From a virus, in the IMG/VR virus record IMGVR_UViG_3300035659_001663, positions 1 to 64,000 of that record: a stretch of 64,000 bases of DNA; one strand, 5' to 3'. Position numbers and translations under genes: made by a program. The number at the start of each line of letters is the position of its first letter. The stretch's first letter is position 1. This document shows positions 5,521-60,890 of this stretch, in pieces. The notes beneath the pieces are model-generated. The model had not been told where the DNA came from. It did no database searches and saw only the letters and a list, made by a program, of their open reading frames with translations.

Positions 5521-6242
5521 TACGTCTTGCAACTTATTCACTTGATAGAATATTACCATTCATAGGCTGTCAAGACAGATTCAATTTAGATGGTGACTTT
5601 GTTAATGTGACATCTTTACGATTGAGATGTTTTAAGATGAAAGGTTTGACATGTGTACGATGTGGATTAGTTGGAGAATTTTTTGCTAAAGAAAAAAGTG
5701 CAGTGTATGATAAGACTTGTCATTTGAATCTATATGCTATTGGTAATGGAACTGAAGTTCTCATGACGCGTGATCACATTGTGCCTCGTTGTGAAGGTGG
5801 AAAAGACAACATGTCTAATTCACAAACAATGTGTATGCCATGTAATTCTAAAAAAGGTTGCGGTAAAAATAGAGCAGTCAAGAATTACATGACAGGCATA
5901 GAACGTATTGATACAATTTTAGGTAATCTTTTTAATATTGTAGAACAAACTGGCAAGTTGCACATATCTGATCTTACTCAACTTTCAAATCATGTACGGT
6001 CATCAATGGTTGATAGTATTGTTCCAAAAGCATTGAAATCTGTTGCAGTTGGATGTCAACCATCTGATTTTGATGGTTACAATCAGCAAGTGTTTAAGAT
6101 TGCACCGAATGTAACGATAGCTCATGGTATTGAAGATGTTACACAAGATTGTCATAAGTTTTATATTTTGAATGTAAGAACTGGAGAACGACTGAATATT
6201 ACTTTAAACAGTCCTAAACAATCAACCCAGGAGGTTTCATGA
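5517..6242 (+). CDS. HNH endonuclease
   Basis: CVRCG...TRDHIVPRCEGGKDNMSNSQTMCMPCNSKKG. Confidence 0.82.
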   Translation: MIRLATYSLDRILPFIGCQDRFNLDGDFVNVTSLRLRCFKMKGLTCVRCGLVGEFFAKEKSAVYDKTCHLNLYAIGNGTEVLMTRDHIVPRCEGGKDNMSNSQTMCMPCNSKKGCGKNRAVKNYMTGIERIDTILGNLFNIVEQTGKLHISDLTQLSNHVRSSMVDSIVPKALKSVAVGCQPSDFDGYNQQVFKIAPNVTIAHGIEDVTQDCHKFYILNVRTGERLNITLNSPKQSTQEVS

Positions 6243-7198
6243 GACCGTCGTTTTATGATCCAAGTAAGGTCGGTACATTGTTTCTGCCACGAATCAATGA
6301 TGTTGAGAAAGAAGCTGATGCTTTGAAGTTGCCTGCATCAGCAAGTGACAAGCCGGGCAATAGGGTTGCACTATTGATCATTGACATGCAGATTGATTTC
6401 TGCCATCAGGCAGGACAATTGTATGTGCCTGGAGCTGAAGATGATATTCGCAATACAGCGAATTTCATTCTTGATAATGTGGACAAGTTGACGGCAATTT
6501 TTGCATCGCTCGACTCTCACTTACTATTCCAGATCTTCTTTCGGTCGTGGTGGCAGTTACAAAATGGACAGAAACCGGATTTCTTCACTGAAATCTACAA
6601 AGATGAACCTGCTCAACGTCATGCACTTACAAAGTGCATCAATATGGGTGAGATTCGGCCGGGCATCGATCCGATAGCAAGTATTGATTATACTGAGAAG
6701 TTGATGCAGCAGTCGAACAAACCGCTTTGTATCTGGACGTACCATACATTACTAGGATTTCCTGGTCAGGCACTCGACCCAGCGCTTGCTGAAGTCTTAG
6801 CATTTCATGCGTTTGCCAGGAAGTCGCAGTTGAACTTCTTGCAGAAGGGTCAAATTCCCCAGACTGAAATGTACGGTATTCTTAGCCCGGAAGTCAAGAT
6901 ACCGACGCACAAGCAGGGAGGGTTCAACACTGACTTCTTGAATATCCTTGCAAAATATGACAAATTAATTGTCGCGGGTGAAGCTGCCAGCCATTGCGTT
7001 TTGGCAACATTGCTCCAAATGCATGGATTCTTCATGAACAATGATAAGTCAGTGCTTAAGAAGATCGTCATTTTTGAAGATTGCATGAGTCCGGTTAAAC
7101 ATCCGACAATTGACTTCAAAAGTATCACGGAAAAACAGTTTGACAAATTCCGGTCGGATGGAATTAACATTGTGAAAAGTACTGATTACAAATTCTAA
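6239..7198 (+). CDS. Nicotinamidase/isochorismatase-family cysteine hydrolase (PncA-like)
   Basis: IIDMQIDF (Asp), LYVPGA, SLDSH (metal), QKG (Lys), GEAASHCV (Cys): intact Asp-Lys-Cys triad; GGAGG SD. Confidence 0.8.
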   Translation: MRPSFYDPSKVGTLFLPRINDVEKEADALKLPASASDKPGNRVALLIIDMQIDFCHQAGQLYVPGAEDDIRNTANFILDNVDKLTAIFASLDSHLLFQIFFRSWWQLQNGQKPDFFTEIYKDEPAQRHALTKCINMGEIRPGIDPIASIDYTEKLMQQSNKPLCIWTYHTLLGFPGQALDPALAEVLAFHAFARKSQLNFLQKGQIPQTEMYGILSPEVKIPTHKQGGFNTDFLNILAKYDKLIVAGEAASHCVLATLLQMHGFFMNNDKSVLKKIVIFEDCMSPVKHPTIDFKSITEKQFDKFRSDGINIVKSTDYKF

Positions 7199-7228
7199 CG
7201 ATAACGCTAAAAAAGGAGAGAAAAAGTT

Positions 7229-8023
7229 ATGAGTTCTAAAAATCCTGTCAGTGTCAATAGTATCAAAAGCTTGTTTACTGGTGCAGTCCAGAACAATGAA
7301 GTAAGTCAAGCTGCAGCTACTATTATGGTCAATAGCCTCAATGATACGAACATTTTGGGCTGTACCGGCGCGTCATTCGATGAATTAGAAACAGATAGTG
7401 TTACTTTGACATCAATTGTGATCGATGCTTCGTACTCAATGAAGAACAATGAACAGACAGTTCGTGACGCTTATGACGAACTGGTGATAAAGGCAATGGC
7501 TGAGTCAAAGCAAAGCGGATCGATGCTGGTAAGTGCAAGAGTATTTTCGACTGATCAGACAATTCTCTATGGTTTCAAGAAAGTTGCAGACATTGGTAAG
7601 ATTGGTAGCCAATATCGTGCAGAAGGTGGTTCAACTCGAATTTTCGATACAGTTGTTGATGCAATTACTGGTATCAGAGCTTATGCAAAGACATTGAATG
7701 ATGGCGGCGTCCAGACAAAATGTATCATAGTTGTAATGTCTGACGGTCAGGACAATGATTCACAGAAGTTCACTGCAGCAGATGCTAAGAAACTTGCTGA
7801 AGACTGTATCGCTTCTGAAATGTTCTATCTAGCATATGTGGGATTCAAGAACGATCCTTCAGATAATCTTGATGCTGTCGCAGCGATGATCGGTTTTCCA
7901 AGTGTGCTTACAACTGGTAATACACCGAGTGAGATTCGAAAAGCAATAGGGTTAGTCAGTCAGTCGGTAATTAGAAAGAGTCAAACGCAAATCGGCCCAG
8001 CAAACACGTTTTTCCAACAATAG
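7229..8023 (+). CDS. vWA-domain protein (TerY-like)
   Basis: MIDAS IDASYSM, GGSTRIFD, VVMSDGQDN. Confidence 0.85.
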   Translation: MSSKNPVSVNSIKSLFTGAVQNNEVSQAAATIMVNSLNDTNILGCTGASFDELETDSVTLTSIVIDASYSMKNNEQTVRDAYDELVIKAMAESKQSGSMLVSARVFSTDQTILYGFKKVADIGKIGSQYRAEGGSTRIFDTVVDAITGIRAYAKTLNDGGVQTKCIIVVMSDGQDNDSQKFTAADAKKLAEDCIASEMFYLAYVGFKNDPSDNLDAVAAMIGFPSVLTTGNTPSEIRKAIGLVSQSVIRKSQTQIGPANTFFQQ

Positions 8024-8028
8024 TATGT

Positions 8029-8059
8029 CGATAGCCGGTGTGTTTAACATCGGCTATCG
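8029..8059 (+). promoter_or_regulatory. Intergenic stem-loop without U-tract (mRNA stability/processing or weak terminator)
   Basis: CGATAGCCGGTG ... CATCGGCTATCG, 12-bp stem with one G-U pair. Confidence 0.55.
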
Positions 8060-8080
8060 TTATGTATGTAGGAGGATCTA

Positions 8081-8614
8081 ATGATACATTACATTAGCGG
8101 CGATGCAACTGATCCTGTCCAAGACAAAGCATTGATTTGTCATGTAGCAAATGATGTGGGTGCATGGGGGTCTGGTTTTGTGCTTGCTCTTTCAAAGAAG
8201 TGGATTAGTCCTGAAAAGGCATATCGCGATTGGAGAAATGGGCGAATAGATAGAGTTACACAAGTCAATATTGACAAATCATTTATATTGGGTAATGTAC
8301 AGTTCGTGCCAGTGTGCTTGCTGCAAGGTAAAGAGATTTGGGTTGCAAACATGATTGCGCAAAAGCGTTGTGGGAATCCGAAATCGACGACTGAGATCTT
8401 TTTACAATACGATCAATTGAACATCGCACTTATCAAGTCGTTTAAGTTTGCAGAAGAGAAAAAATTGTCGCTTCACATGCCTCGCATTGGTTGCGATAGA
8501 GCCGGCGGTCAATGGAGCAAAGTCAAACCATTAATTGAAACACATTCACAAGATACTGGGATTGATGTGTATGTATATGATTTGCCAGGCGTGCCAAAGA
8601 CATGGAATGACTGA
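8081..8614 (+). CDS. Macro-domain protein (ADP-ribose processing, Poa1p/DarG-like clade)
   Basis: YISGDATDP, CHVANDVGAWGSGF, ANMIAQ, MPRIGCDRAGGQW. Confidence 0.9.
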   Translation: MIHYISGDATDPVQDKALICHVANDVGAWGSGFVLALSKKWISPEKAYRDWRNGRIDRVTQVNIDKSFILGNVQFVPVCLLQGKEIWVANMIAQKRCGNPKSTTEIFLQYDQLNIALIKSFKFAEEKKLSLHMPRIGCDRAGGQWSKVKPLIETHSQDTGIDVYVYDLPGVPKTWND

Positions 8615-8823
8615 TGATTGTCTTGACTTTAATTAATGGTATAGTCGCAAAGTTTCGATTCAAAGAGAAAGATCTGTTTTTCTATTGGTTAATGTATGAT
8701 ATGTCAGGCGAGTATAAATACATTCATAATGATAGACATGTTAAGATAAATACTGACGATGGACAGTTAGTGATCACAGCATCAATGATCAAGAAATGTG
8801 AGCTTATTAATGAATCTTACTAG
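8614..8823 (+). CDS. Hypothetical protein
   Basis: Start overlaps the Macro gene stop (TGATG), suggesting translational coupling. Confidence 0.55.
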   Translation: MIVLTLINGIVAKFRFKEKDLFFYWLMYDMSGEYKYIHNDRHVKINTDDGQLVITASMIKKCELINESY

Positions 8824-9496
8824 TGATTCTTTTATTACTTGGGCTTCTAGATCTATCAAAAATAAAAACACATTACGACTAGTATTATTGGCATATAGAC
8901 TGGCAAAAAGTTCACAGGTTATAAAAGGTGCTGATATCAACGAGCCTGCGCAGGCTGCCAGATTTTTTGCAAATGAATATGTTGAGGGTGACCAGCAACG
9001 ACTTAGTATGAATATTGTGGCTTTATTACTTAGTTATGTAGTTGATGTAAATCTTTTGACGATGGATGATGTCTATTTTATTTTTGGAAAAGTTGTACAT
9101 GAAAAAGTACGATCACTCGATTTAATAGAGACTATTGTTTCATCGAATGCAAAAATAACAGATGCAAAGCAATGTCGGTATGTCAACCAATTCACAGAAG
9201 ATCACATTCTTATAAAAGCATCTGTTATCATTGTTAGACTGAGAGCTTTACAACTAAGCAAGAATAAAGGGTTACCTATAAAGATACATAGTAGGTATCT
9301 ACCAATCTTCGATACTTATATTCAAATCGGCAATAAAGTTGCTACAGAATTACGAAAATGGTTGTTACAGAAGATCAAGCAGGCGCAAACATCTGGTACT
9401 GACTATAATTTAACTGCCGGTGACCTTTTCTCATACTTTTCAATCGTGTCAGATAGACGATTGAAGACTAAGTCCCTCGAATTACTTCTCCGTTGA
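8798..9496 (+). CDS. Degenerate RelA/SpoT/Mesh1-type HD-domain protein (catalytic residues lost)
   Basis: AYRLAK, INEPAQAARFFANE, IVALLLSYVVDVNLLTMDDVYFIFGKVV and ILIKASVIIVRLRAL align with AYxFAxxAH, YIxHPxxVAxIL, IAALLHDVVEDTxxTxxxIxxxFGxxV and LIKLADRLHNMRTL. Confidence 0.65.
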   Translation: MSLLMNLTSDSFITWASRSIKNKNTLRLVLLAYRLAKSSQVIKGADINEPAQAARFFANEYVEGDQQRLSMNIVALLLSYVVDVNLLTMDDVYFIFGKVVHEKVRSLDLIETIVSSNAKITDAKQCRYVNQFTEDHILIKASVIIVRLRALQLSKNKGLPIKIHSRYLPIFDTYIQIGNKVATELRKWLLQKIKQAQTSGTDYNLTAGDLFSYFSIVSDRRLKTKSLELLLR

Positions 9497-53464: not shown

Positions 53465-53552
53465 TTAGATTAGATATTGTTGCTAGAAGGTAAAAGTAAC
53501 TTTGCTTGACACCAAAGATGCCGATATACATGATCAACTAAGGAGGATTGCG

Positions 53553-55403
53553 ATGGACAAGTGGACTGCAAAGGTACATGTTTCAGGAACTCGCATTCAG
53601 CTTCTCAAGAACGGTAGTGTAACTAAGGTCATCAAAGCTAGCACTGAAACTTTCAAGCCGATCGAAGCTAAGGCATTTGCTGAGAACTTGGTTAATACTA
53701 TCAATGCAAAACAAGCGAAGCAGATGACAGATCCTGATGCAGCACCTGCTATTGATACAAAGGGAGAAGAACAGGCGAAGGCTTTGAAGGCTCTTGGTCA
53801 AGATGCAAAAGGCATCTCTGTCAAAGAAGCTTCGGCTATTACTGAAGAAAATAAGTCATTGAAGAAGAAGGTTGCACGGCTCGAAAAGGAAGCAACAATT
53901 GAGAGAAAAGCACGTCGTGGACTTGCAATTGCTAAGACGATGGTCCAACAGAAGAAGATTGCAAACGATGAATCTGCTATTAAAGCAGAAGTCATGAAGA
54001 TCGTTGCGATGTCGAATGATGAAATCGGCCTGCTCGAAAAGAAAGTTGCAGGAGCTCCTCTTTACAACTCTGCTGATGAAGCTGCTACTGCTGGACGACG
54101 TTATGCTCGTATGGCAAGACTGCACAGACAAGCTGCTGAAGATGCTGAGCTCGCAGAGAATACAGATCTTGCTGATGATGAAGATAAACAGGCTGCTAAG
54201 TACGAGACTCTGTCTAAAGAAGCTGCTTGCGAAGCTGAAAAGTGCTACGCACAGATGGATGCTGCGAAGGTCGATTCTACGAAGCCTGACGATGCAGTGA
54301 ATCAGGTCAAAGACGAGGCTAAGGGCGTCGACGCGCAGGGTAAGAAGACAGCTTCTGATGATAAGGATGCTGATGATGTTGATGGTGACAAAGATGAAGA
54401 AGAAGAATTCATAGACGATGAAAAGGTAGCATCTGATGATGACGACGAAGATGATGTTGAGGAAGAAGAAGACGAAGACTTTGAGATTGAAGCAGCTGCA
54501 GCTATTTACCGGAAGATAGCTTCTGATCATACTGCTAAGTCTGAAGAATTCAAGAAGGCAGGAAAAGAAACTGAAGCTGCGACAGAACTCGAAGTTGCGA
54601 AAGAAGCTGCTGAACTTGCTGACGACATTGAGAGTGATGAAGATGAGGATGAAGAAGATCTAAGCAAGGAAGCTGCTGCAATCTATCGCAAGATCGCAGC
54701 TGAACATCGTAAGAAGGCAGACGAACTTGAAGCTGAAGGCAAGACACCAGAAGCTGATGTAGAAGATGAAATTGCTGACGAATCTGAACAACTCGCTGCA
54801 AGTGTTGAATCTTCATTGGCGAAGAAAGCTGATGACGATGACTCTGACAGTTCAGACGATGATGCGAAAGCTCTTAAGGGCGACCCGATGAAAATGGAAA
54901 CAGAAGGCAAGGTCGCAGAAGATGAAGGCTGCAAGAAAGTATCAGATGATGATGCGAAGAAACCCGCTCCTGAAGTTATGCCTGAAGACACTGCTGCTGT
55001 TGCAGACACTACTGATGAAGTAACAGACAAAGAAGCCAAGAAGACACCAGCTACTACTGATGAAGATGACCCCTTGGCAGCACTGTTAACAGACGACGAA
55101 GCTAAAGCTGCAAGCGCTGATGAAGATGAATCAACTGAAGGCGATGATGCTACAATGCCTTCTGATGATGAAATTGATGCAGCTGTTGCAGGAGATTCAG
55201 ATGAAGATGAAGTGGCGCCAACTGAAGAAGAGGTCGATGCAGGAGATTCTAAAGAAGCTACAACTTCAAAGGGATCCAAAAAGATCGCCAATGAAGGCCA
55301 TAGCAAACAGGCATCTTATGACAGAATCGAACAGAATCAGTATGCATCAGATCCTCAAGTACGCGAGCTCGAAAGTCTCTGGCGCCCAGAAGAAAATGCA
55401 TAA
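53553..55403 (+). CDS. Capsid scaffolding/core protein (highly acidic)
   Basis: AAGGAGG SD; coiled-coil and D/E-rich; repeated EAAAAIYRKIA/KEAAAIYRKIA; precedes decoration and MCP genes. Confidence 0.75.
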   Translation: MDKWTAKVHVSGTRIQLLKNGSVTKVIKASTETFKPIEAKAFAENLVNTINAKQAKQMTDPDAAPAIDTKGEEQAKALKALGQDAKGISVKEASAITEENKSLKKKVARLEKEATIERKARRGLAIAKTMVQQKKIANDESAIKAEVMKIVAMSNDEIGLLEKKVAGAPLYNSADEAATAGRRYARMARLHRQAAEDAELAENTDLADDEDKQAAKYETLSKEAACEAEKCYAQMDAAKVDSTKPDDAVNQVKDEAKGVDAQGKKTASDDKDADDVDGDKDEEEEFIDDEKVASDDDDEDDVEEEEDEDFEIEAAAAIYRKIASDHTAKSEEFKKAGKETEAATELEVAKEAAELADDIESDEDEDEEDLSKEAAAIYRKIAAEHRKKADELEAEGKTPEADVEDEIADESEQLAASVESSLAKKADDDDSDSSDDDAKALKGDPMKMETEGKVAEDEGCKKVSDDDAKKPAPEVMPEDTAAVADTTDEVTDKEAKKTPATTDEDDPLAALLTDDEAKAASADEDESTEGDDATMPSDDEIDAAVAGDSDEDEVAPTEEEVDAGDSKEATTSKGSKKIANEGHSKQASYDRIEQNQYASDPQVRELESLWRPEENA

Positions 55404-55436
55404 ACGTAACTCAACAATCACTCGGAGGTTCTTCAC

Positions 55437-55934
55437 ATGCTTATTATCAAATACCCTGGCAACAGGAACACGCTCTACAGCTTGAATGCGACGGGTTTCA
55501 CCCGCCCCAATACAGCTGCTGAAGCAGGACGCACTCTCGGTCGCATCCCGGCCAATGCACCTGCAGGCGCTCTCGGCGGAATGGCAGCGATGATGAGTGG
55601 CAGCTATGAAGCCAACATCTGCGTGAACGACAAACCGGTCGGATTCTTCTTGAATGATGCAGCAGGCTCGGCATATGAAAATACGCCAACTGTTGCTTCT
55701 GGCAAGCTCACGGTCATGACCGGTCAAGGCTCATACGAGACTGACATCTATGAGACAGTCAAGGAAGCCGGCGGCGCGCTTGACACTGCATGGACAGCTT
55801 CTCTCGGTCTCCCGCTGTATGTTTCAAACTTCGGCCTCCTCACGACCGAAAGCACTGGTTCGATCATCGTCGGCTATGTGACAAAGGCACCGGCAACTGA
55901 CAACCCGATGCTTGGTTTCAATACGACAATCTAA
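55437..55934 (+). CDS. Head decoration/cement protein
   Basis: GGAGG SD; PVGFFLND...SGKLTV..G.G.YETD.YE...LYVS..GLLT...VG.VTK.P; immediately upstream of MCP. Confidence 0.75.
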   Translation: MLIIKYPGNRNTLYSLNATGFTRPNTAAEAGRTLGRIPANAPAGALGGMAAMMSGSYEANICVNDKPVGFFLNDAAGSAYENTPTVASGKLTVMTGQGSYETDIYETVKEAGGALDTAWTASLGLPLYVSNFGLLTTESTGSIIVGYVTKAPATDNPMLGFNTTI

Positions 55935-56001
55935 GTAGCTAGCTGCAATTGCTAATGCAAAAAGAAATTGAACGATCAACAATCTTTAAGGAGTCGAAAA
56001 A

Positions 56002-56874
56002 ATGAAACTTACACCGGCCCAAAGAGAAGCAGTTGTTAACAAGCTTCTCCAGACTGCTGAAGGCAAGATGAAGCTTGCTGCTTCGATGCAGAACCCGTTG
56101 CGCGAAAGGCTTGACTACGAAGGCGTATTTCGCCGGGCTATCGTGGTGGATCCGCTCCCTCAGGGCGCACTTCCCTACTACGATAAGGACATCAACGTCC
56201 CTGCTATCGTAATCTCTGAAGAAGGCAAGACACCGGAAACGATCGTCAAGGGAAAGCGTATCCTGATTCCCCTGTTCGAACTCGGATCGAACCCGAAGAT
56301 TCCGTTCACACAGGTCAAGGAACGCCGTTACAATCTCATTGACCGTGCACAAGACAAGGCCAAACAGGAAATCCAGGCTGCTGAAGACGAGCTCGGATTC
56401 TCTGCTTTCGACGTTGCAATTGCACAGGTTGACCCGATCACTGGCGTCCCCTTCAATGCTACAATCGGTGCAGCTGGCTCGCTCGACCGTGACGCACTTG
56501 CTGACGGCTTTGCCGAAATTGAGAAACATGACCTTCGTGTTGCACGCATGTTCATGAATGCACGTGACTACAGCGACATCCGTAAGTGGGGCCGGGACCA
56601 ACTGGACCCGATCACACAGGAGAGCTTGCTGAACACGGGCCTCATGGGAATGATCTGGGGAGCAGAAATCATCGTTAGCCGTATCGTTCCGATCGGCACG
56701 GTCTATGTCTGCACGGAAGAGAAACACCTCGGAATCATGCCGCAGCGTATCGACATCACGGTACTTCCTGCTGACGACCCCGATAGCAGATTGGTCGGCT
56801 GGTCAATTTTCGAACAAATTGGAATAGGTGTCTGGAACCCGCGCGGAGTGGGCTCGATCTTGATAACCAGGTAA
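56002..56874 (+). CDS. Major capsid protein (HK97 fold)
   Basis: KLAASMQNPLRERLDYEG..RR..VVD.LPQG, P.FE...P.I..., FMNARDYSDIRKWG, G.IWGA.I.VS; strongly biased high-expression codons. Confidence 0.9.
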   Translation: MKLTPAQREAVVNKLLQTAEGKMKLAASMQNPLRERLDYEGVFRRAIVVDPLPQGALPYYDKDINVPAIVISEEGKTPETIVKGKRILIPLFELGSNPKIPFTQVKERRYNLIDRAQDKAKQEIQAAEDELGFSAFDVAIAQVDPITGVPFNATIGAAGSLDRDALADGFAEIEKHDLRVARMFMNARDYSDIRKWGRDQLDPITQESLLNTGLMGMIWGAEIIVSRIVPIGTVYVCTEEKHLGIMPQRIDITVLPADDPDSRLVGWSIFEQIGIGVWNPRGVGSILITR

Positions 56875-56912
56875 GTAAGTAGTCGAGCAAATTAAACTGT
56901 CAGTCAGTTTAG

Positions 56913-56945
56913 ATAGCAGCCTTTCAAAAAGGCTGCTATTTTTTT
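56913..56945 (+). terminator. Intrinsic terminator after MCP
   Basis: ATAGCAGCCTT/AAGGCTGCTAT stem plus T-run. Confidence 0.85.
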
Positions 56946-57024
56946 GTCTAAGTGCTCTTCTTCTTAATTTAATCGTGATTAGATACCTCTCTCTCATAAA
57001 CTCTTTGCTGTTTTCATTACCAAT

Positions 57025-57060
57025 GATCCTGATACTCGCTTGGTTGGTTGGACTATTTTT
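57025..57060 (+). repeat. Recoded 36-nt copy of an MCP C-terminal segment (56776-56811)
   Basis: GATCCTGATACTCGCTTGGTTGGTTGGACTATTTTT encodes DPDTRLVGWTIF vs MCP DPDSRLVGWSIF; 25/36 nt and 10/12 aa identical. Confidence 0.85.
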
Positions 57061-57148
57061 GTCATATAATCATAATTATTTTATTTTTATTGTAAATCAT
57101 CGTAAAAAGATTATATATTATAATCATAAGATTAAAAAAGGAGGAAAC

Positions 57149-58618
57149 ATGCAATGTCCTGTATGCAATTCTAATGTCAATGATATGGCTAGACATTTTG
57201 TATCAAAGTTTAGACTTGTAAATGACGAAGATGGGATTAAGCATTTACAATACATTAAGGAAGAGAAAAAACAAATAACTGATTATGTTAATTCATTTTT
57301 TGAGACAAATTTGACATTGAGACAAGCTAGAGATAAAGTTAATGAAAAGTATATTAATCTAACATTCAAATCATTAAGAATAATTTCAAAAATTTGGATT
57401 AGAACGTTTGGCAAAGAAGAGTATGATAAAAGAGTAAAGCGATTAAACAGTGGAAAATCTAAAAAAATGTGGCTCACTAGAGATAAAAGTGCTATTAAAC
57501 ATTTGTATGAGTTTAGAATTCAAAGTGCAAAGGATAGAACTGCTTTAGCTATAGAAAATACGAATAAAATATTAAGCAATAGAGTCAATGCTATAAAATT
57601 TGTAGATAATGTTAATGAAAACATTGAAATTAAAGATCATTTATCTAGTGCTATTCAATGTCGATTATGTGGTAATTTTTTTAGAGCATTAGGTTTTCAT
57701 TGTATGAATGTTCATAGTATTACAAGCATGGGATACAAAATATTATTTCCTAACGAACCATTAGTATGTCAAGAATCGATTGATAGTCGGTCTAAAAAAT
57801 TGATTTCTCAAGGATTAATGCGAAAAATTAGATTTTTTGATGAATCTATTAATATAGAGAAAGAAGTCGAAATAGCTCAATATAGAAAAAAAATGTTTAG
57901 ATTAGTTAGAGGTAGAGACATTTGTTGCCAAGAATGTGATAAAATAGATAGTAATGTTGATATTCATCATATAGTACCACATCGATTATTTTCTAGATAT
58001 GACTTTGAAATGCATGATCCTGATAATTTAATATTATTGTGTGATCAATGTCATGCTATTTATGGTCAAGAGCTTGATCAAATTATTATTGAAATATTTG
58101 CACGAATTATTCAAGTCATGCATCCTTTTACTTATAAGTATGTTATTGCCAAGTTGAAATTTGAAGAAAAGTTAATATTCAAAAGAAAAGTCGGTGCTCC
58201 TAAGTTGTATAACGTGACAGCTAATGATGTCGATAAGGCAAAAGTTGATGGAAAAGTTATGATTTCAAAAGCTATAGAGTTGATGCCAAATGTGCCAAAA
58301 CGGCATATAGTTAAAGCTTGTAGAGATAATAATATGACGTTCATAAATCCTGAATGTTTGACTAAGAATTTGAAAACAAAGATATGTCCTGTGTGTGGTT
58401 GGAGTGGGTCATTTAAGTTTTCAAAGCATGTGAAAACAAATGACGATAAGCATCAATCATTTTTGAGAGAGTTAGAAAGATTGTATATTAATGAGAAGTT
58501 AGGTTGTGATAAAATAGCTGAAGTTTATAGTGAATATAATTTTACACGTGAGATTGTTGAAGCGATTTTGAAAGATGCAGGTATATATTATAAAATATTA
58601 CAAGAGGAGGTTGCATGA
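57149..58618 (+). CDS. HNH endonuclease with several C2H2/Ros-MucR-like Zn fingers
   Basis: AAGGAGG SD before MQCPVC; CRLCG...H...VH...Y; CQEC...DIHHIVP...HDPDNLILLCDQCH. Confidence 0.85.
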   Translation: MQCPVCNSNVNDMARHFVSKFRLVNDEDGIKHLQYIKEEKKQITDYVNSFFETNLTLRQARDKVNEKYINLTFKSLRIISKIWIRTFGKEEYDKRVKRLNSGKSKKMWLTRDKSAIKHLYEFRIQSAKDRTALAIENTNKILSNRVNAIKFVDNVNENIEIKDHLSSAIQCRLCGNFFRALGFHCMNVHSITSMGYKILFPNEPLVCQESIDSRSKKLISQGLMRKIRFFDESINIEKEVEIAQYRKKMFRLVRGRDICCQECDKIDSNVDIHHIVPHRLFSRYDFEMHDPDNLILLCDQCHAIYGQELDQIIIEIFARIIQVMHPFTYKYVIAKLKFEEKLIFKRKVGAPKLYNVTANDVDKAKVDGKVMISKAIELMPNVPKRHIVKACRDNNMTFINPECLTKNLKTKICPVCGWSGSFKFSKHVKTNDDKHQSFLRELERLYINEKLGCDKIAEVYSEYNFTREIVEAILKDAGIYYKILQEEVA

Positions 58619-59175
58619 GTGAGTTGATTCGGTGCCAAATTGAAGGCTGTACGCATGAAGCAAAAGCATTAAGAGGTCATGTGGTTAGTGTTCACGGAAT
58701 GACAACAGATGAGTATAAGCAAAAGTATGGTAAGTATAGTCTTGTGTCAGAGGATTATTTGTTAAAATTGCGAGCGTCAGGTAATAAAGCGTCAGAGACA
58801 GTTGATAATAGAGTGTATAGGCATAAGTGTAGAAATGATGATTGTGATGTGATTATTGATGGAAAGGCATTAGTTTGTGATGTTTGTAAAGCTAAGCAGC
58901 AGATAAGATTATTAGAGTTGCAAAAGTTGAAGTTTAAAGATATGGTTGAGAATCAAGATTTTGTTGTTTGCAAAATTTGCGGGTGGTGTGATACTAGAAT
59001 ATCTGGTCATGTATTGAGTGTTCACAATATGGATAAACGACAGTATAGAAGTTTGTATGGTGATTCACTGTTAGTATGTAGTGACATTGCAAATAGAACA
59101 GCATTTAGAGGGATTCATTCTATTGATACTCGTAGGCAAATGGCAATAAGTCACATGAAACGTCAGTCTATATAG
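58615..59175 (+). CDS. Tandem Ros/MucR-like Zn-finger protein with NUMOD3-like tail
   Basis: CQIEGC...GHVVSVHGM...Y...YG and CKICG...GHVLSVHNM...Y...YG; HSIDTRRQMA. Confidence 0.75.
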   Translation: MSELIRCQIEGCTHEAKALRGHVVSVHGMTTDEYKQKYGKYSLVSEDYLLKLRASGNKASETVDNRVYRHKCRNDDCDVIIDGKALVCDVCKAKQQIRLLELQKLKFKDMVENQDFVVCKICGWCDTRISGHVLSVHNMDKRQYRSLYGDSLLVCSDIANRTAFRGIHSIDTRRQMAISHMKRQSI

Positions 59176-59187
59176 GGAGTAGATCAA

Positions 59188-59700
59188 ATGATTGTTGAAG
59201 CAGATACTAGAATATATAATTTTGCAAAGTTAATGGGAAATGAAGATTATGAGATTAATTTTGTCGAGCTTGATAATGGTGCGTTCGGGATACAATATCC
59301 TTATAAGAAATTGATAGAGATTAATTTATGCCTGTTAGATGACGATATTGAAGATAGAATACTAGCTGTACTGTCTCATGAAATTGGTCACTGTAAAACG
59401 TATGCTAGAAGTCAGTATTTACGTGAATTTCATGCGTCTATGTGGGCTATAAGACGAAATGAAGAAGTAAGAAAAGATAATGATGAATATGATTTTCGAT
59501 CGATTAGGAATAGGTTGATTTTGACATTTTTGTTATGGGAGAATGATTCACCTGCAAGATATAGAAAATCTGCTTATTTTGCAAGACAATGCGGTGTTTT
59601 AAGTTATTTAGAGTATTGTTTGGTATCTAATACAGAATGTAATATTGATGAATTAAGTAGAATATATGAACACCATGTGAACATTAAAGTTTCTGTATAA
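59188..59700 (+). CDS. HExxH zinc metallopeptidase-like protein (ImmA/IrrE-like)
   Basis: IEINL...VLSHEIGH...E..A. Confidence 0.7.
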   Translation: MIVEADTRIYNFAKLMGNEDYEINFVELDNGAFGIQYPYKKLIEINLCLLDDDIEDRILAVLSHEIGHCKTYARSQYLREFHASMWAIRRNEEVRKDNDEYDFRSIRNRLILTFLLWENDSPARYRKSAYFARQCGVLSYLEYCLVSNTECNIDELSRIYEHHVNIKVSV

Positions 59701-59717
59701 AAATAAGGAGTGATATT

Positions 59718-60074
59718 ATGTCTTGTAGAGTCGAGTTGATGCAAGGTAGGACAGATCGTTTTGTTATTGTAGACAAGAATGGTAGGGTTGTTAATGATGC
59801 TCAGGGTTATGGTTATACAACAAAGCAAAAGGCTATTAGGGCTATGTGGTATCATTGTGGAGGAGGTAAACAGAAGATTGATGCAATTAAGAATGAGGCT
59901 AAGAAGTTTTGGGATGATCATAAAGATGCTGGTAAGTATTTGCAAGAGTTGTATGAGATGAATGTTAAAGAAATATGTACGGGAGAAGTTACTGATAACG
60001 ATATTATTAGAGATGTTTGCGAGAAGTATTTGATTGATAGTATTCCAAGGGCATATATTGAGTATTTGCCGTAG
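59718..60074 (+). CDS. Hypothetical protein
   Basis: AAGGAG SD; DAQGYGYTT motif. Confidence 0.65.
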   Translation: MSCRVELMQGRTDRFVIVDKNGRVVNDAQGYGYTTKQKAIRAMWYHCGGGKQKIDAIKNEAKKFWDDHKDAGKYLQELYEMNVKEICTGEVTDNDIIRDVCEKYLIDSIPRAYIEYLP

Positions 60075-60092
60075 ATGACGATTTTGTATGAA

Positions 60093-60119
60093 AGCAGCTA
60101 TCAAAAGGCTGCTATTTTT
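60093..60119 (+). terminator. Terminator, degenerate duplicate of the post-MCP terminator
   Basis: AGCAGCT..GGCTGCT plus T-run; AAAAGGCTGCTATTTTT identical to 56927-56943. Confidence 0.7.
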
Positions 60120-60188
60120 CTGTGAATTAGAGGATGTAAGTGGTTAATGATACTAAATGAATAGTTGCTTTATATTGAGGTAAAATAC

Positions 60189-60890
60189 ATGGAGAAAAGA
60201 AGTCATTCATTGACGAATCGTGAGATAGATGTAGATGGTTTAGTGGATAAGTATGAGGAGTTCGATAATAGTGATTTTGGAAATGAGTTTGTTCCGTTAG
60301 AGAAATCAGATTATGAGATAAGGGCATCACAAAACAACACTCGTGAGGAGGAAAGTATGAAGGATACGCGTAAGGCAAGTTATGTGGGTGAATTGACATC
60401 TGGTTATGATGCAAAGGTTCAGAATGATTATGAGGCTGGTAAGGGTGATAAGGGTCAGATTGGTAAGGGGCATGAGGAGGAAGTTGCTGCTAAGAATAAT
60501 TGGGAGGCTGATAAGAGAGATGCTGTTGGTCGTGCAGCTGCTTCGAGTTTGTTACGTAAGGCAGCGTTGAAGTTGACTAAGATGGCAGATGCTATGGAGG
60601 AAGAGAAGTTTGATGATGATGACGATGTTGAAGAGAGTGTTAAGGATTTGGAGAATGTAGATAGTGATGATGAGGGTGGAGATATGGAGGAGATCGCTAC
60701 AGCAGTTCTTGATGAGACTAAAGTAGCGGCCAAGAAGGTTGCAGTGCATCCGTTAGATCATGATCCTAAGGGAGATGATCCGGCAGCTGATATGTCACCG
60801 CAGACAGGTGATGAGGAGTGGATTGATATAGGTCCTGGTGAGTTTGATGATCCGCGTGATGAAGTTGGAAGAGCTGCTGAGGGAAAGTAA
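60189..60890 (+). CDS. Acidic putative head protein with internal repeat (RDxVGRAA twice)
   Basis: D/E-rich; RKAS, RKAA, KVAAKKVA motifs; a second possible start at 60357 has a GAGGAGG SD. Confidence 0.65.
   Translation: MEKRSHSLTNREIDVDGLVDKYEEFDNSDFGNEFVPLEKSDYEIRASQNNTREEESMKDTRKASYVGELTSGYDAKVQNDYEAGKGDKGQIGKGHEEEVAAKNNWEADKRDAVGRAAASSLLRKAALKLTKMADAMEEEKFDDDDDVEESVKDLENVDSDDEGGDMEEIATAVLDETKVAAKKVAVHPLDHDPKGDDPAADMSPQTGDEEWIDIGPGEFDDPRDEVGRAAEGK

Follow-up and report, generated by a model that had tools for sequence, protein, structure and literature searches.

The window analyzed here (64,000 nucleotides, positions 1 to 64,000 of the IMG/VR virus record IMGVR_UViG_3300035659_001663) is a piece of a phage-G-like megaphage and carries a short fragment of major capsid protein (MCP) coding sequence just upstream of a free-standing HNH homing-endonuclease-like gene. 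The fragment (57010..57060, plus strand; VFITNDPDTRLVGWTIF; core 57025-57060) was identified by sequence comparison. Fragments of the same capsid segment recur at the same place in related phages, and their conservation is codon-periodic. We propose, with confidence somewhat short of even and from sequence evidence, that the fragment is a non-cleavable homing-site mimic acting in cis near the HNH promoter. This explanation was rated best because the copy is codon-periodic, free of indels, and recurrently placed, and because I-TevI of phage T4 provides a precedent.

The capsid fragment, its recurrence, and its evolution

The core at 57025-57060 (GAT CCT GAT ACT CGC TTG GTT GGT TGG ACT ATT TTT) translates to DPDTRLVGWTIF, and MCP residues 259-270, encoded at 56776-56811 (GAC CCC GAT AGC AGA TTG GTC GGC TGG TCA ATT TTC), are DPDSRLVGWSIF. 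The 11 differences in 36 nt comprise five third-position C>T changes, AGA>CGC, and two Ser>Thr codons, exactly as described in the original prediction, which had been made from the sequence by eye of a model; the copy is likewise isolated 3' of the MCP terminator (56911-56941), its end lying 88 nt before the HNH ATG at 57149. In a BLOSUM scan the copy scored 58, against a maximum of 27 among 40 shuffles of the 4 kb downstream, and the tblastn alignment is longer, covering 17 residues (57010-57060; 65% identity, E 5.5e-4). Chance similarity to the MCP was ruled out by these two comparisons. The AT-rich spacer that precedes the fragment (56951..57009) is not MCP-derived; it has no MCP similarity above shuffles and is absent in the related locus L004. 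An eroded MCP tail in 56946-57024 was sought in 12 alignments without a signal, two nominal P values of 0.02-0.04 being lost after multiple testing. Because the spacer has no detectable MCP ancestry, no long eroded tail lies upstream of the fragment. A promoter-like site for the HNH operon (TTGTAA-18-TATATT, 57090..57119, plus strand) was predicted by consensus match, and its hexamers are retained in L003 (TTGTAA..TATATT) and L004 (TTGTAC..TATATA). The fragment ends at 57060 and the predicted -35 hexamer starts at 57090; the promoter-like site is thus not overlapped in the window. An N-terminal extension of the HNH protein from an ATG at 57023 (MILILAWLVG...) was rejected, the frame being closed in L003 and L004.

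The copied core belongs to MCP segment S (residues 254-277; 56761..56832, plus strand), the presumed target of the homing endonuclease genes (HEGs) found at this locus. S-like fragments were searched for by the BLOSUM scan in 17 sources, namely the window and the related loci L003-L018. The score exceeded that of every shuffle in four of them (window, 58; L003, 50; L004, 47; L017, 38), the L017 fragment being inverted, with 25 residues on the opposite strand (E 3e-6). Weaker pieces of the same motif occupy the same place in L013 (DNDLIGW, minus strand), L010 (ARLIG*TKFD, minus strand), and L005 (FIGWSSI), where the short remnant abuts TATAAT, a predicted promoter. Every fragment lies 3' of the MCP terminator and within 100 nt ahead of the point where the first zinc-finger HEG starts. 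They were found in seven of the eight island types opening with a zinc-finger HEG (the exception is L014-L016) and in none of the six opening with another gene, counts that are not independent because the loci are related, and for which the first gene of L010 was classed as a zinc-finger HEG by reading only. The fragments of the relatives all map to MCP residues ~248-277. The check proposed with the original prediction, whether homologous loci carry MCP-derived segments at this position, thus gave a positive answer, but a single MCP segment is involved throughout and not a varied, spacer-like set. Degenerate-pattern scans of IMG/VR and the JGI metagenomes retrieved only more L003-type and L004 copies; the JGI scan also gave four matches with no MCP nearby, which were taken as chance. 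Contigs of four other sediment runs contained L003-type and L004-type fragments again and no new variants.

The substitutions indicate divergence within another coding allele, as originally proposed: between the window fragment and the resident MCP, third positions differ in 9 of 13 codons and first and second positions at 4 of 26 sites. The evolutionary statistics given here are drawn from three to seven short, related sequences. Neutral decay of a copy from the resident lineage was disfavored for the window (P 0.002) and, more broadly, for the window, L004, L017, and L010 (P 0.002-0.016), and was compatible with L003, L005, and L013. Each fragment is near random at third positions relative to its resident MCP (6-9 differences in 8-13 codons), with first and second positions largely kept, and the MCP allele of the same locus is never the closest to a fragment (rank 7-15 of 17). 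A recent duplication of the resident gene, which had also been doubted at the outset, was rejected in view of the saturated third positions; for the window, the resident allele is the 10th closest of 17. Of the 16 changes inferred among the three same-strand copies, 11 affect third positions (P 0.004). The window and L003 fragments are orthologous, since their flanks are alignable; of the 13 sites at which they differ, 9 are third positions (P 0.009). Between the window and L004, whose flanks are no longer alignable, 2 of 22 first and second positions differ. The fragment core contains no indels and has a mismatch of 31%, the same as the spacer, for which comparison of the window with L030 (56951-57024) gave 31% mismatch plus 12 gap columns. 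The even substitutions, indels, and gradual fading of a decaying relic were not observed; only the 3' side fades, in L003 to residue 277.

One codon stands out in these comparisons. Of 120 MCP homologs, 118 cover the position following GW, and every one of these has Ser there, down to 52% identity. In six of the seven fragments this Ser is replaced (Thr, Thr, Thr, Thr, Phe, and Cys); it is retained in L005 only. No MCP allele with Thr after GW was found among the 118 homologs or by the degenerate scans of IMG/VR and JGI. Elsewhere, the fragments show residues of their own capsid clade, with Val (Met in L003) versus Ile and Asn versus Ser/Ala/Thr.

The presumed target and the homing hot spot

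Over residues 254-277, third-position identity among seven colinear MCP alleles is the 9th lowest of 267 windows. A group I intron is inserted at MCP 251|252 in L072 (RF00028, 64 bits), and the multiply split L079 gene has an insertion at 254|255; other insertions in MCP genes of distant relatives are at residues 60 and 190. The 5' edge of S is therefore a recurrent mobile-intron insertion point. Between the window MCP (56002-56874) and the L003 MCP (6001-6873), divergence is 5.5% over nt 1-687 and three-fold higher, at 15.6%, over nt 688-873 (permutation P ~0.001). This jump, ~90 nt 5' of the copied segment, suggests a recombination or co-conversion boundary, in line with the earlier suggestion that homing may have replaced the MCP 3' end. 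The accompanying claim of a codon switch in the MCP 3' end was borne out in part. AGA, AGG, TTG, and ATA make up 4 of the first 258 codons and 6 of the last 32 (Fisher 1.7e-4, for codons picked post hoc), but the G+C content at third positions (GC3) is constant (0.60 in codons 1-258 and 0.63 in the last 32).

Homing endonucleases have a hot spot at this locus. In the window, a 3.2-kb island with four ORFs separates the MCP gene from the next conserved gene. The site is empty in L008, where the MCP gene ends at 6870 and the homolog of 60165-60890 starts at 6982. In L005, L013, and L014 it holds ROS_MUCR plus NUMOD3 plus endonuclease-I-like genes, in L018 a NUMOD3 plus TnsA-like gene, in L006 a glycosyltransferase gene, and in other relatives other genes. 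The L004 HNH gene is short by ~100 residues, and the L003-type contigs L030 and L029 have lost HNH residues 153-320 or 38-320 and with them the nuclease motif. Such sporadic, modular, and decaying occupancy is the behavior of free-standing HEGs, which cluster beside capsid genes, forming HEG islands (PMC10448857). The hot-spot HEGs, whether HNH or NUMOD3/endonuclease-I-like, appear to begin with MucR-like zinc fingers. Further relatives of the HNH gene were sought with the protein and two alignments, which found only the L004 contig among viral contigs and none in metagenomes; no paralogs were found in five records, and a promoter-block pattern search matched only the L003 contig. In L013, a zinc-finger/NUMOD3 endonuclease-like ORF of 689 aa (7061-9127) has a weak DNA-methylase-like end (PF01555, E 0.0012, below cut-off) and may be a fusion.

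The first island gene of the window (57149..58618, plus strand, 489 aa) is a free-standing HNH homing-endonuclease-like gene with putative Cys/His zinc-finger modules, preceded by AGGAGG 4 nt 5' of its start codon. Its HNH motif was detected with PF01844 (26.6 bits, cut-off 21.4, residues 260-306) and by matches to ten PHROG HNH families, and reads CCQEC...HH...DNLILLC...CDQCH (CxxC...HH...N...CxxCH). Together with the sporadic occupancy and the decayed copies among relatives, this motif upholds the assignment of the neighboring ORF to the free-standing homing type. Three Cys/His modules were recognized by eye, and the Pfam zf-Di19 match is sub-threshold. The protein had no sequence match in the PDB, and the protein atlas yielded only viral HNH clusters with scores <0.9. 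Its C-terminal ~140 residues are near-identical in the window (58190-58615) and L004 (7730-8138), the N-terminal 100 residues are ~29% identical, and the L004 protein is without one internal zinc-finger module, a contrast that indicates domain shuffling or recent recombination within the gene. The stop codon of the HNH gene is overlapped by the start of a gene for a MucR/Ros-type zinc-finger protein (58615..59175, plus strand, 186 aa; PF05443, E 4.5e-10). Homology of this protein with the DNA-binding N terminus of the NUMOD3-type HEGs in L013, L014, L005, and L017 was seen by tblastn; ROS_MUCR and NUMOD3 matches above cut-off were obtained for it and the HEGs of the relatives. The remaining cargo comprises a SprT-like (HEIGH) ORF (59188..59700, plus strand, 170 aa; PF10263, E 0.0018, below cut-off), which is 90% identical in L029/L030, and an ORF of 118 aa with no family (59718..60074, plus strand), which is missing in L029. 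Within the SprT-like ORF, in another frame, 20 of 24 nt at 59492-59515 equal MCP 56806-56829 (IFEQIGIG), the stretch coding directly after the copied segment; L029/L030 are 100% identical to the window over the 76 nt around it. A second MCP-derived stretch was rejected here, the match being near chance level by a rough estimate. The MCP terminator T1 (56911..56950, plus strand), a stem-loop with a T tract kept in L003 and L004, forms the left island edge, and the terminator copy T2 (60093..60123, plus strand; 20/21 nt identical to 56927-56947) the right one. These two homologous terminators (56911-56947 and 60093-60123) bracket the island and are 20/21 nt identical in the 3' half; empty-site relatives have one. 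Beyond T2 lies a conserved acidic 241-aa gene (60165..60890, plus strand), which directly follows the MCP gene in the empty-site relative L008.

The MCP gene itself (56002..56874, plus strand, 290 aa) belongs to the HK97 fold family (phrog_2522 major head protein, E 1.4e-65); its product is 47% identical to gp27 of Bacillus phage G and has 881 homologs. Protease-like, acidic scaffold-like, and decoration-like genes lie 5' of it. The source record is a 73-kb megaphage fragment, ~19% complete by estimate, and close relatives sit on viral contigs of 330-424 kb. The G+C content is ~35% in the genome background, 45-55% in the scaffold, decoration, and capsid genes (53500-56874 for the scaffold-like, decoration-like, and capsid genes of the window), and 25-34% in 56950-60100. 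The MCP genes of the window and L003 have GC3 values of 0.60 and 0.57, compared with 0.25-0.37 in most relatives (L017, 0.48; L018, 0.44). This head-gene pattern points to lineage-specific recoding of highly expressed head genes.

Several further observations were made on the MCP genes of relatives. Split MCP genes occur in the distant relatives L072 (5730-6135), L076 (585-809), L077 (=L021; 5550-6797), and L079 (5001-8243). The L076 gene also has a group I intron, L021/L077 has an insertion of ~1.25 kb at residue 190, and the L079 gene is broken into five or more pieces. Just 3' of the split L079 gene, at 8789-9015, lies a full-length HEARO RNA (RF02033, 99 bits), an IscB-associated omega-RNA. 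In L080 (a contig binned as a Paceibacterota metagenome-assembled genome), a 65-aa ORF after the MCP terminator (5945-6142) includes LPQTLLIPLRRRLYYNGIIRYAFKI, which resembles MCP residues 24-48 (31.6 bits versus 19.2 for the control), with no endonuclease nearby. The stretch EKFLLTPDGKLSVDANVE, resembling MCP residues 14-31, is found ~5 kb 3' of the MCP gene in L014-L016 (11145-11198) and L018 (10916-10966) and may belong to a paralogous protein sharing the N-terminal motif.

A proposed homing-site mimic and its rival, a possible homing scar

In the proposed mechanism, the hot-spot nucleases would recognize the MCP segment coding for residues ~254-277, and 57010-57060 would be a captured copy of that recognition site. 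The HNH endonuclease or its zinc-finger partner (58615-59175) would bind the copy and be unable to cut it, so that the copy would be a cis element next to the nuclease promoter, serving autoregulation or titration like the T4 I-TevI operator. Homing endonucleases read conserved coding DNA and tolerate wobble positions, as reported for I-AniI (PMC3943268), and because of this tolerance a mimic would drift at third positions. The change of the Ser codon in six of the seven fragments is as expected if cleavage had to be lost. The MCP target region appears to behave like a homing site, judging from the divergence jump at nt 687 and the L072 intron at 251|252. Of the functions originally imagined for the fragment, the operator or decoy is the best explanation; it would not be an undescribed system, T4 I-TevI having a homing-site-like operator (PMC2988022).

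Several points weigh against the mimic. The role of S as a homing site is itself deduced from sequence comparison. The fragment ends 30 nt 5' of the predicted -35 hexamer, whereas the T4 operator overlaps its promoter. In L014-L016 a zinc-finger HEG that seems intact has no detectable fragment beside it, L013, L010, and L005 have copies of eroded appearance, and the fragment persists in L029/L030 despite the deleted HNH motif. Third positions differ between the window and L003 in 9 of 13 codons, above the 31% of the spacer (P 0.005), and re-derivation from coding alleles therefore fits better than simple constraint. The small number of short, related sequences behind the statistics counts here as well. 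Finally, a neighbor-gene fragment was found upstream in none of six testable NUMOD3 HEG loci (nine examined, in three related megaphages), a survey that targets >5 kb away would escape; since none of the six carries one, the fragment is not a general habit of HEGs. An unlikely variant would make the fragment a rewritable record: in the course of homing from one co-infecting relative to another, the capsid allele of the partner phage would serve as template for rewriting it. Every cassette would in this way hold an uncuttable image of an allele targeted recently, and this image would tune the dosage or specificity of the zinc-finger nuclease in inter-phage competition. Such a record would explain the third positions diverged beyond the spacer (9/13 versus 31%), the clade-typical residues (Val versus Ile, Asn versus Ser/Ala), and both orientations of the segment.

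A functionless scar is the main rival, rated not far below the mimic and likewise at less than even confidence. The fragment would be the leftover of a donor-phage capsid allele that marks the cut site and survives only where mutated to an uncuttable state. It could stem from illegitimate repair of an endonuclease break in S or from insertion of the cassette into a duplicated, dispensable MCP 3' end with its terminator. Illegitimate double-strand break repair at microhomologies is known for T4 intron homing (PMC2988022, citing Parker 1999), and the recombination boundary at MCP nt 687 and the two terminator copies that bracket the island agree with such an origin. The relic marking a cut site, one of the two readings first offered, stays in contention through the eroded copies of L013, L010, and L005 and the duplicated terminator, but the longer, progressively eroded MCP tails that would support it were seen weakly: a decayed extension of the L003 copy reaches residue 277, one nucleotide is deleted in the window immediately after TTT, and the upstream spacer has no MCP ancestry and hence no long eroded tail. 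L014-L016 without a fragment, its endurance beside HNH genes without a nuclease motif, and the equal total divergence of fragment and spacer (31% each) would also suit a scar. Third positions are saturated relative to every resident allele and the own MCP is never closest, as for a foreign coding allele, and the excess of third-position differences between the window and L003 over spacer divergence (P 0.005) hints at descent from different coding alleles. Yet the orthologous window and L003 copies differ mainly at third positions (P 0.009), which neutral scars should not, and 20 of 22 first and second positions are unchanged between the window and L004 even though the flanks of these two cannot be aligned. 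Leaving the same ~25-codon segment in both orientations beside two nuclease classes would require a very precise repeated mechanism, and the common Thr at an invariant Ser position speaks against independent fresh captures.

Two other functions were considered. That the fragment is translated into a short peptide mimicking the capsid C-terminal strand is very improbable. Translation would produce the codon-periodic pattern; ATG ORFs span the fragment in L017 (29 aa, 6991-7080, minus strand) and L004 (22 aa), and the 65-aa ORF of L080 has its stretch like MCP residues 24-48 right after the MCP gene. Against this, initiation signals are missing in the window and L003, where the frame offers neither a start codon (ATG, GTG, or TTG) nor a ribosome-binding site from the preceding stop onward to the fragment; the L004 ATG lies inside the terminator stem, a stop replaces Trp in L010, and neither frames nor lengths are conserved. 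The guide or antisense RNA of the original prediction, in which a transcribed segment would direct or regulate the HNH protein against foreign capsid alleles in a CRISPR-, IscB-, or TnpB-like manner or silence MCP mRNA, fared worst and is scarcely credible. A target-like segment 5' of a nuclease ORF superficially recalls the arrangement of guide, omega-RNA, and IscB, and a true HEARO/IscB RNA does lie 3' of the MCP gene in the distant relative L079 (RF02033, 99 bits). In the window, however, no Rfam match reached the gathering score, none was found at E<=1 in 56850-57250, the fold z-scores were -0.46 and +0.49, and no repeats flank the fragment. Pfam matches are limited to HNH and weak zinc-finger ones, with no RuvC, RRXRR, or other IscB features. 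The segment lies upstream of the promoter-like site, and the inverted copies (L017, L013, and L010) would yield the opposite strand. With 69% identity to the resident gene and at most 30/39 to any sampled allele, pairing would be poor.

Relation to known homing systems

The cyanophage endonuclease F-CphI is a free-standing homing endonuclease encoded next to psbA. The locus studied here also resembles that of the T4 MobE/Seg enzymes, in which a nuclease gene lies between conserved genes, is sporadic among relatives, is presumed to cut an essential neighbor, and is accompanied by flanking co-conversion (PMC10448857; MobE, PMC2790892). The IscB/TnpB omega-RNA (HEARO) systems share a target-derived sequence adjoining an HNH nuclease gene, and a HEARO RNA occurs near the L079 MCP; in contrast to them, the window has no RNA scaffold, RuvC domain, or transposon ends. 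In limited-homology break repair, joins are made at microhomologies and the endonuclease element invades ectopic sites (PMC2988022, citing Parker, Belisle, Belfort 1999). The exon duplications of that work are comparable in that such repair could leave a scrap of the target gene at the element edge. Those scars were experimental one-off products, whereas the present segment is found repeatedly, in diverged phages and with codon-periodic substitutions. In the literature titles and abstracts searched, no description was found of a target-segment copy beside a HEG in intronless or collaborative homing systems, which is not proof of absence.

If the mimic is real, comparative genomics alone would locate the likely homing site of the endonucleases of an uncultured megaphage, at capsid residues ~254-277. 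Target-site mimicry by a nuclease promoter, so far demonstrated for the intron-encoded I-TevI only, would then not be confined to T4 and would include free-standing nucleases that bear zinc fingers and belong to two catalytic classes. If the scar is real, the finding would be an ordinary one, a homing footprint that still marks the cut region. The locus offers a compact test bed for how homing endonucleases separate "bind" from "cut" and how giant phages shuffle capsid genes.

If the fragment is a target-site mimic, as seems most likely, its kind has a precedent in phage T4. The I-TevI operator shares 15 of 20 nt with the homing site; the two are bound equally well, but the operator is cut ~100-fold less, a cleavage determinant being missing from it. 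Putative similar operators lie upstream of I-TevII and I-TevIII (PMC2988022). In T4, a homing-site-like sequence is found just 5' of the endonuclease ORF near the promoter; comparable to it here is a target-gene-like segment, with an invariant codon altered, 88 nt 5' of the HNH ORF. The T4 enzymes are intron-encoded GIY-YIG or HNH nucleases, and the operator overlaps the promoter. The genes of the megaphage hot spot, in contrast, are free-standing and combine MucR-type zinc fingers with two nuclease classes, and the putative mimic, to which their products would bind, lies ~30 nt 5' of the predicted -35 hexamer and occurs in either orientation.

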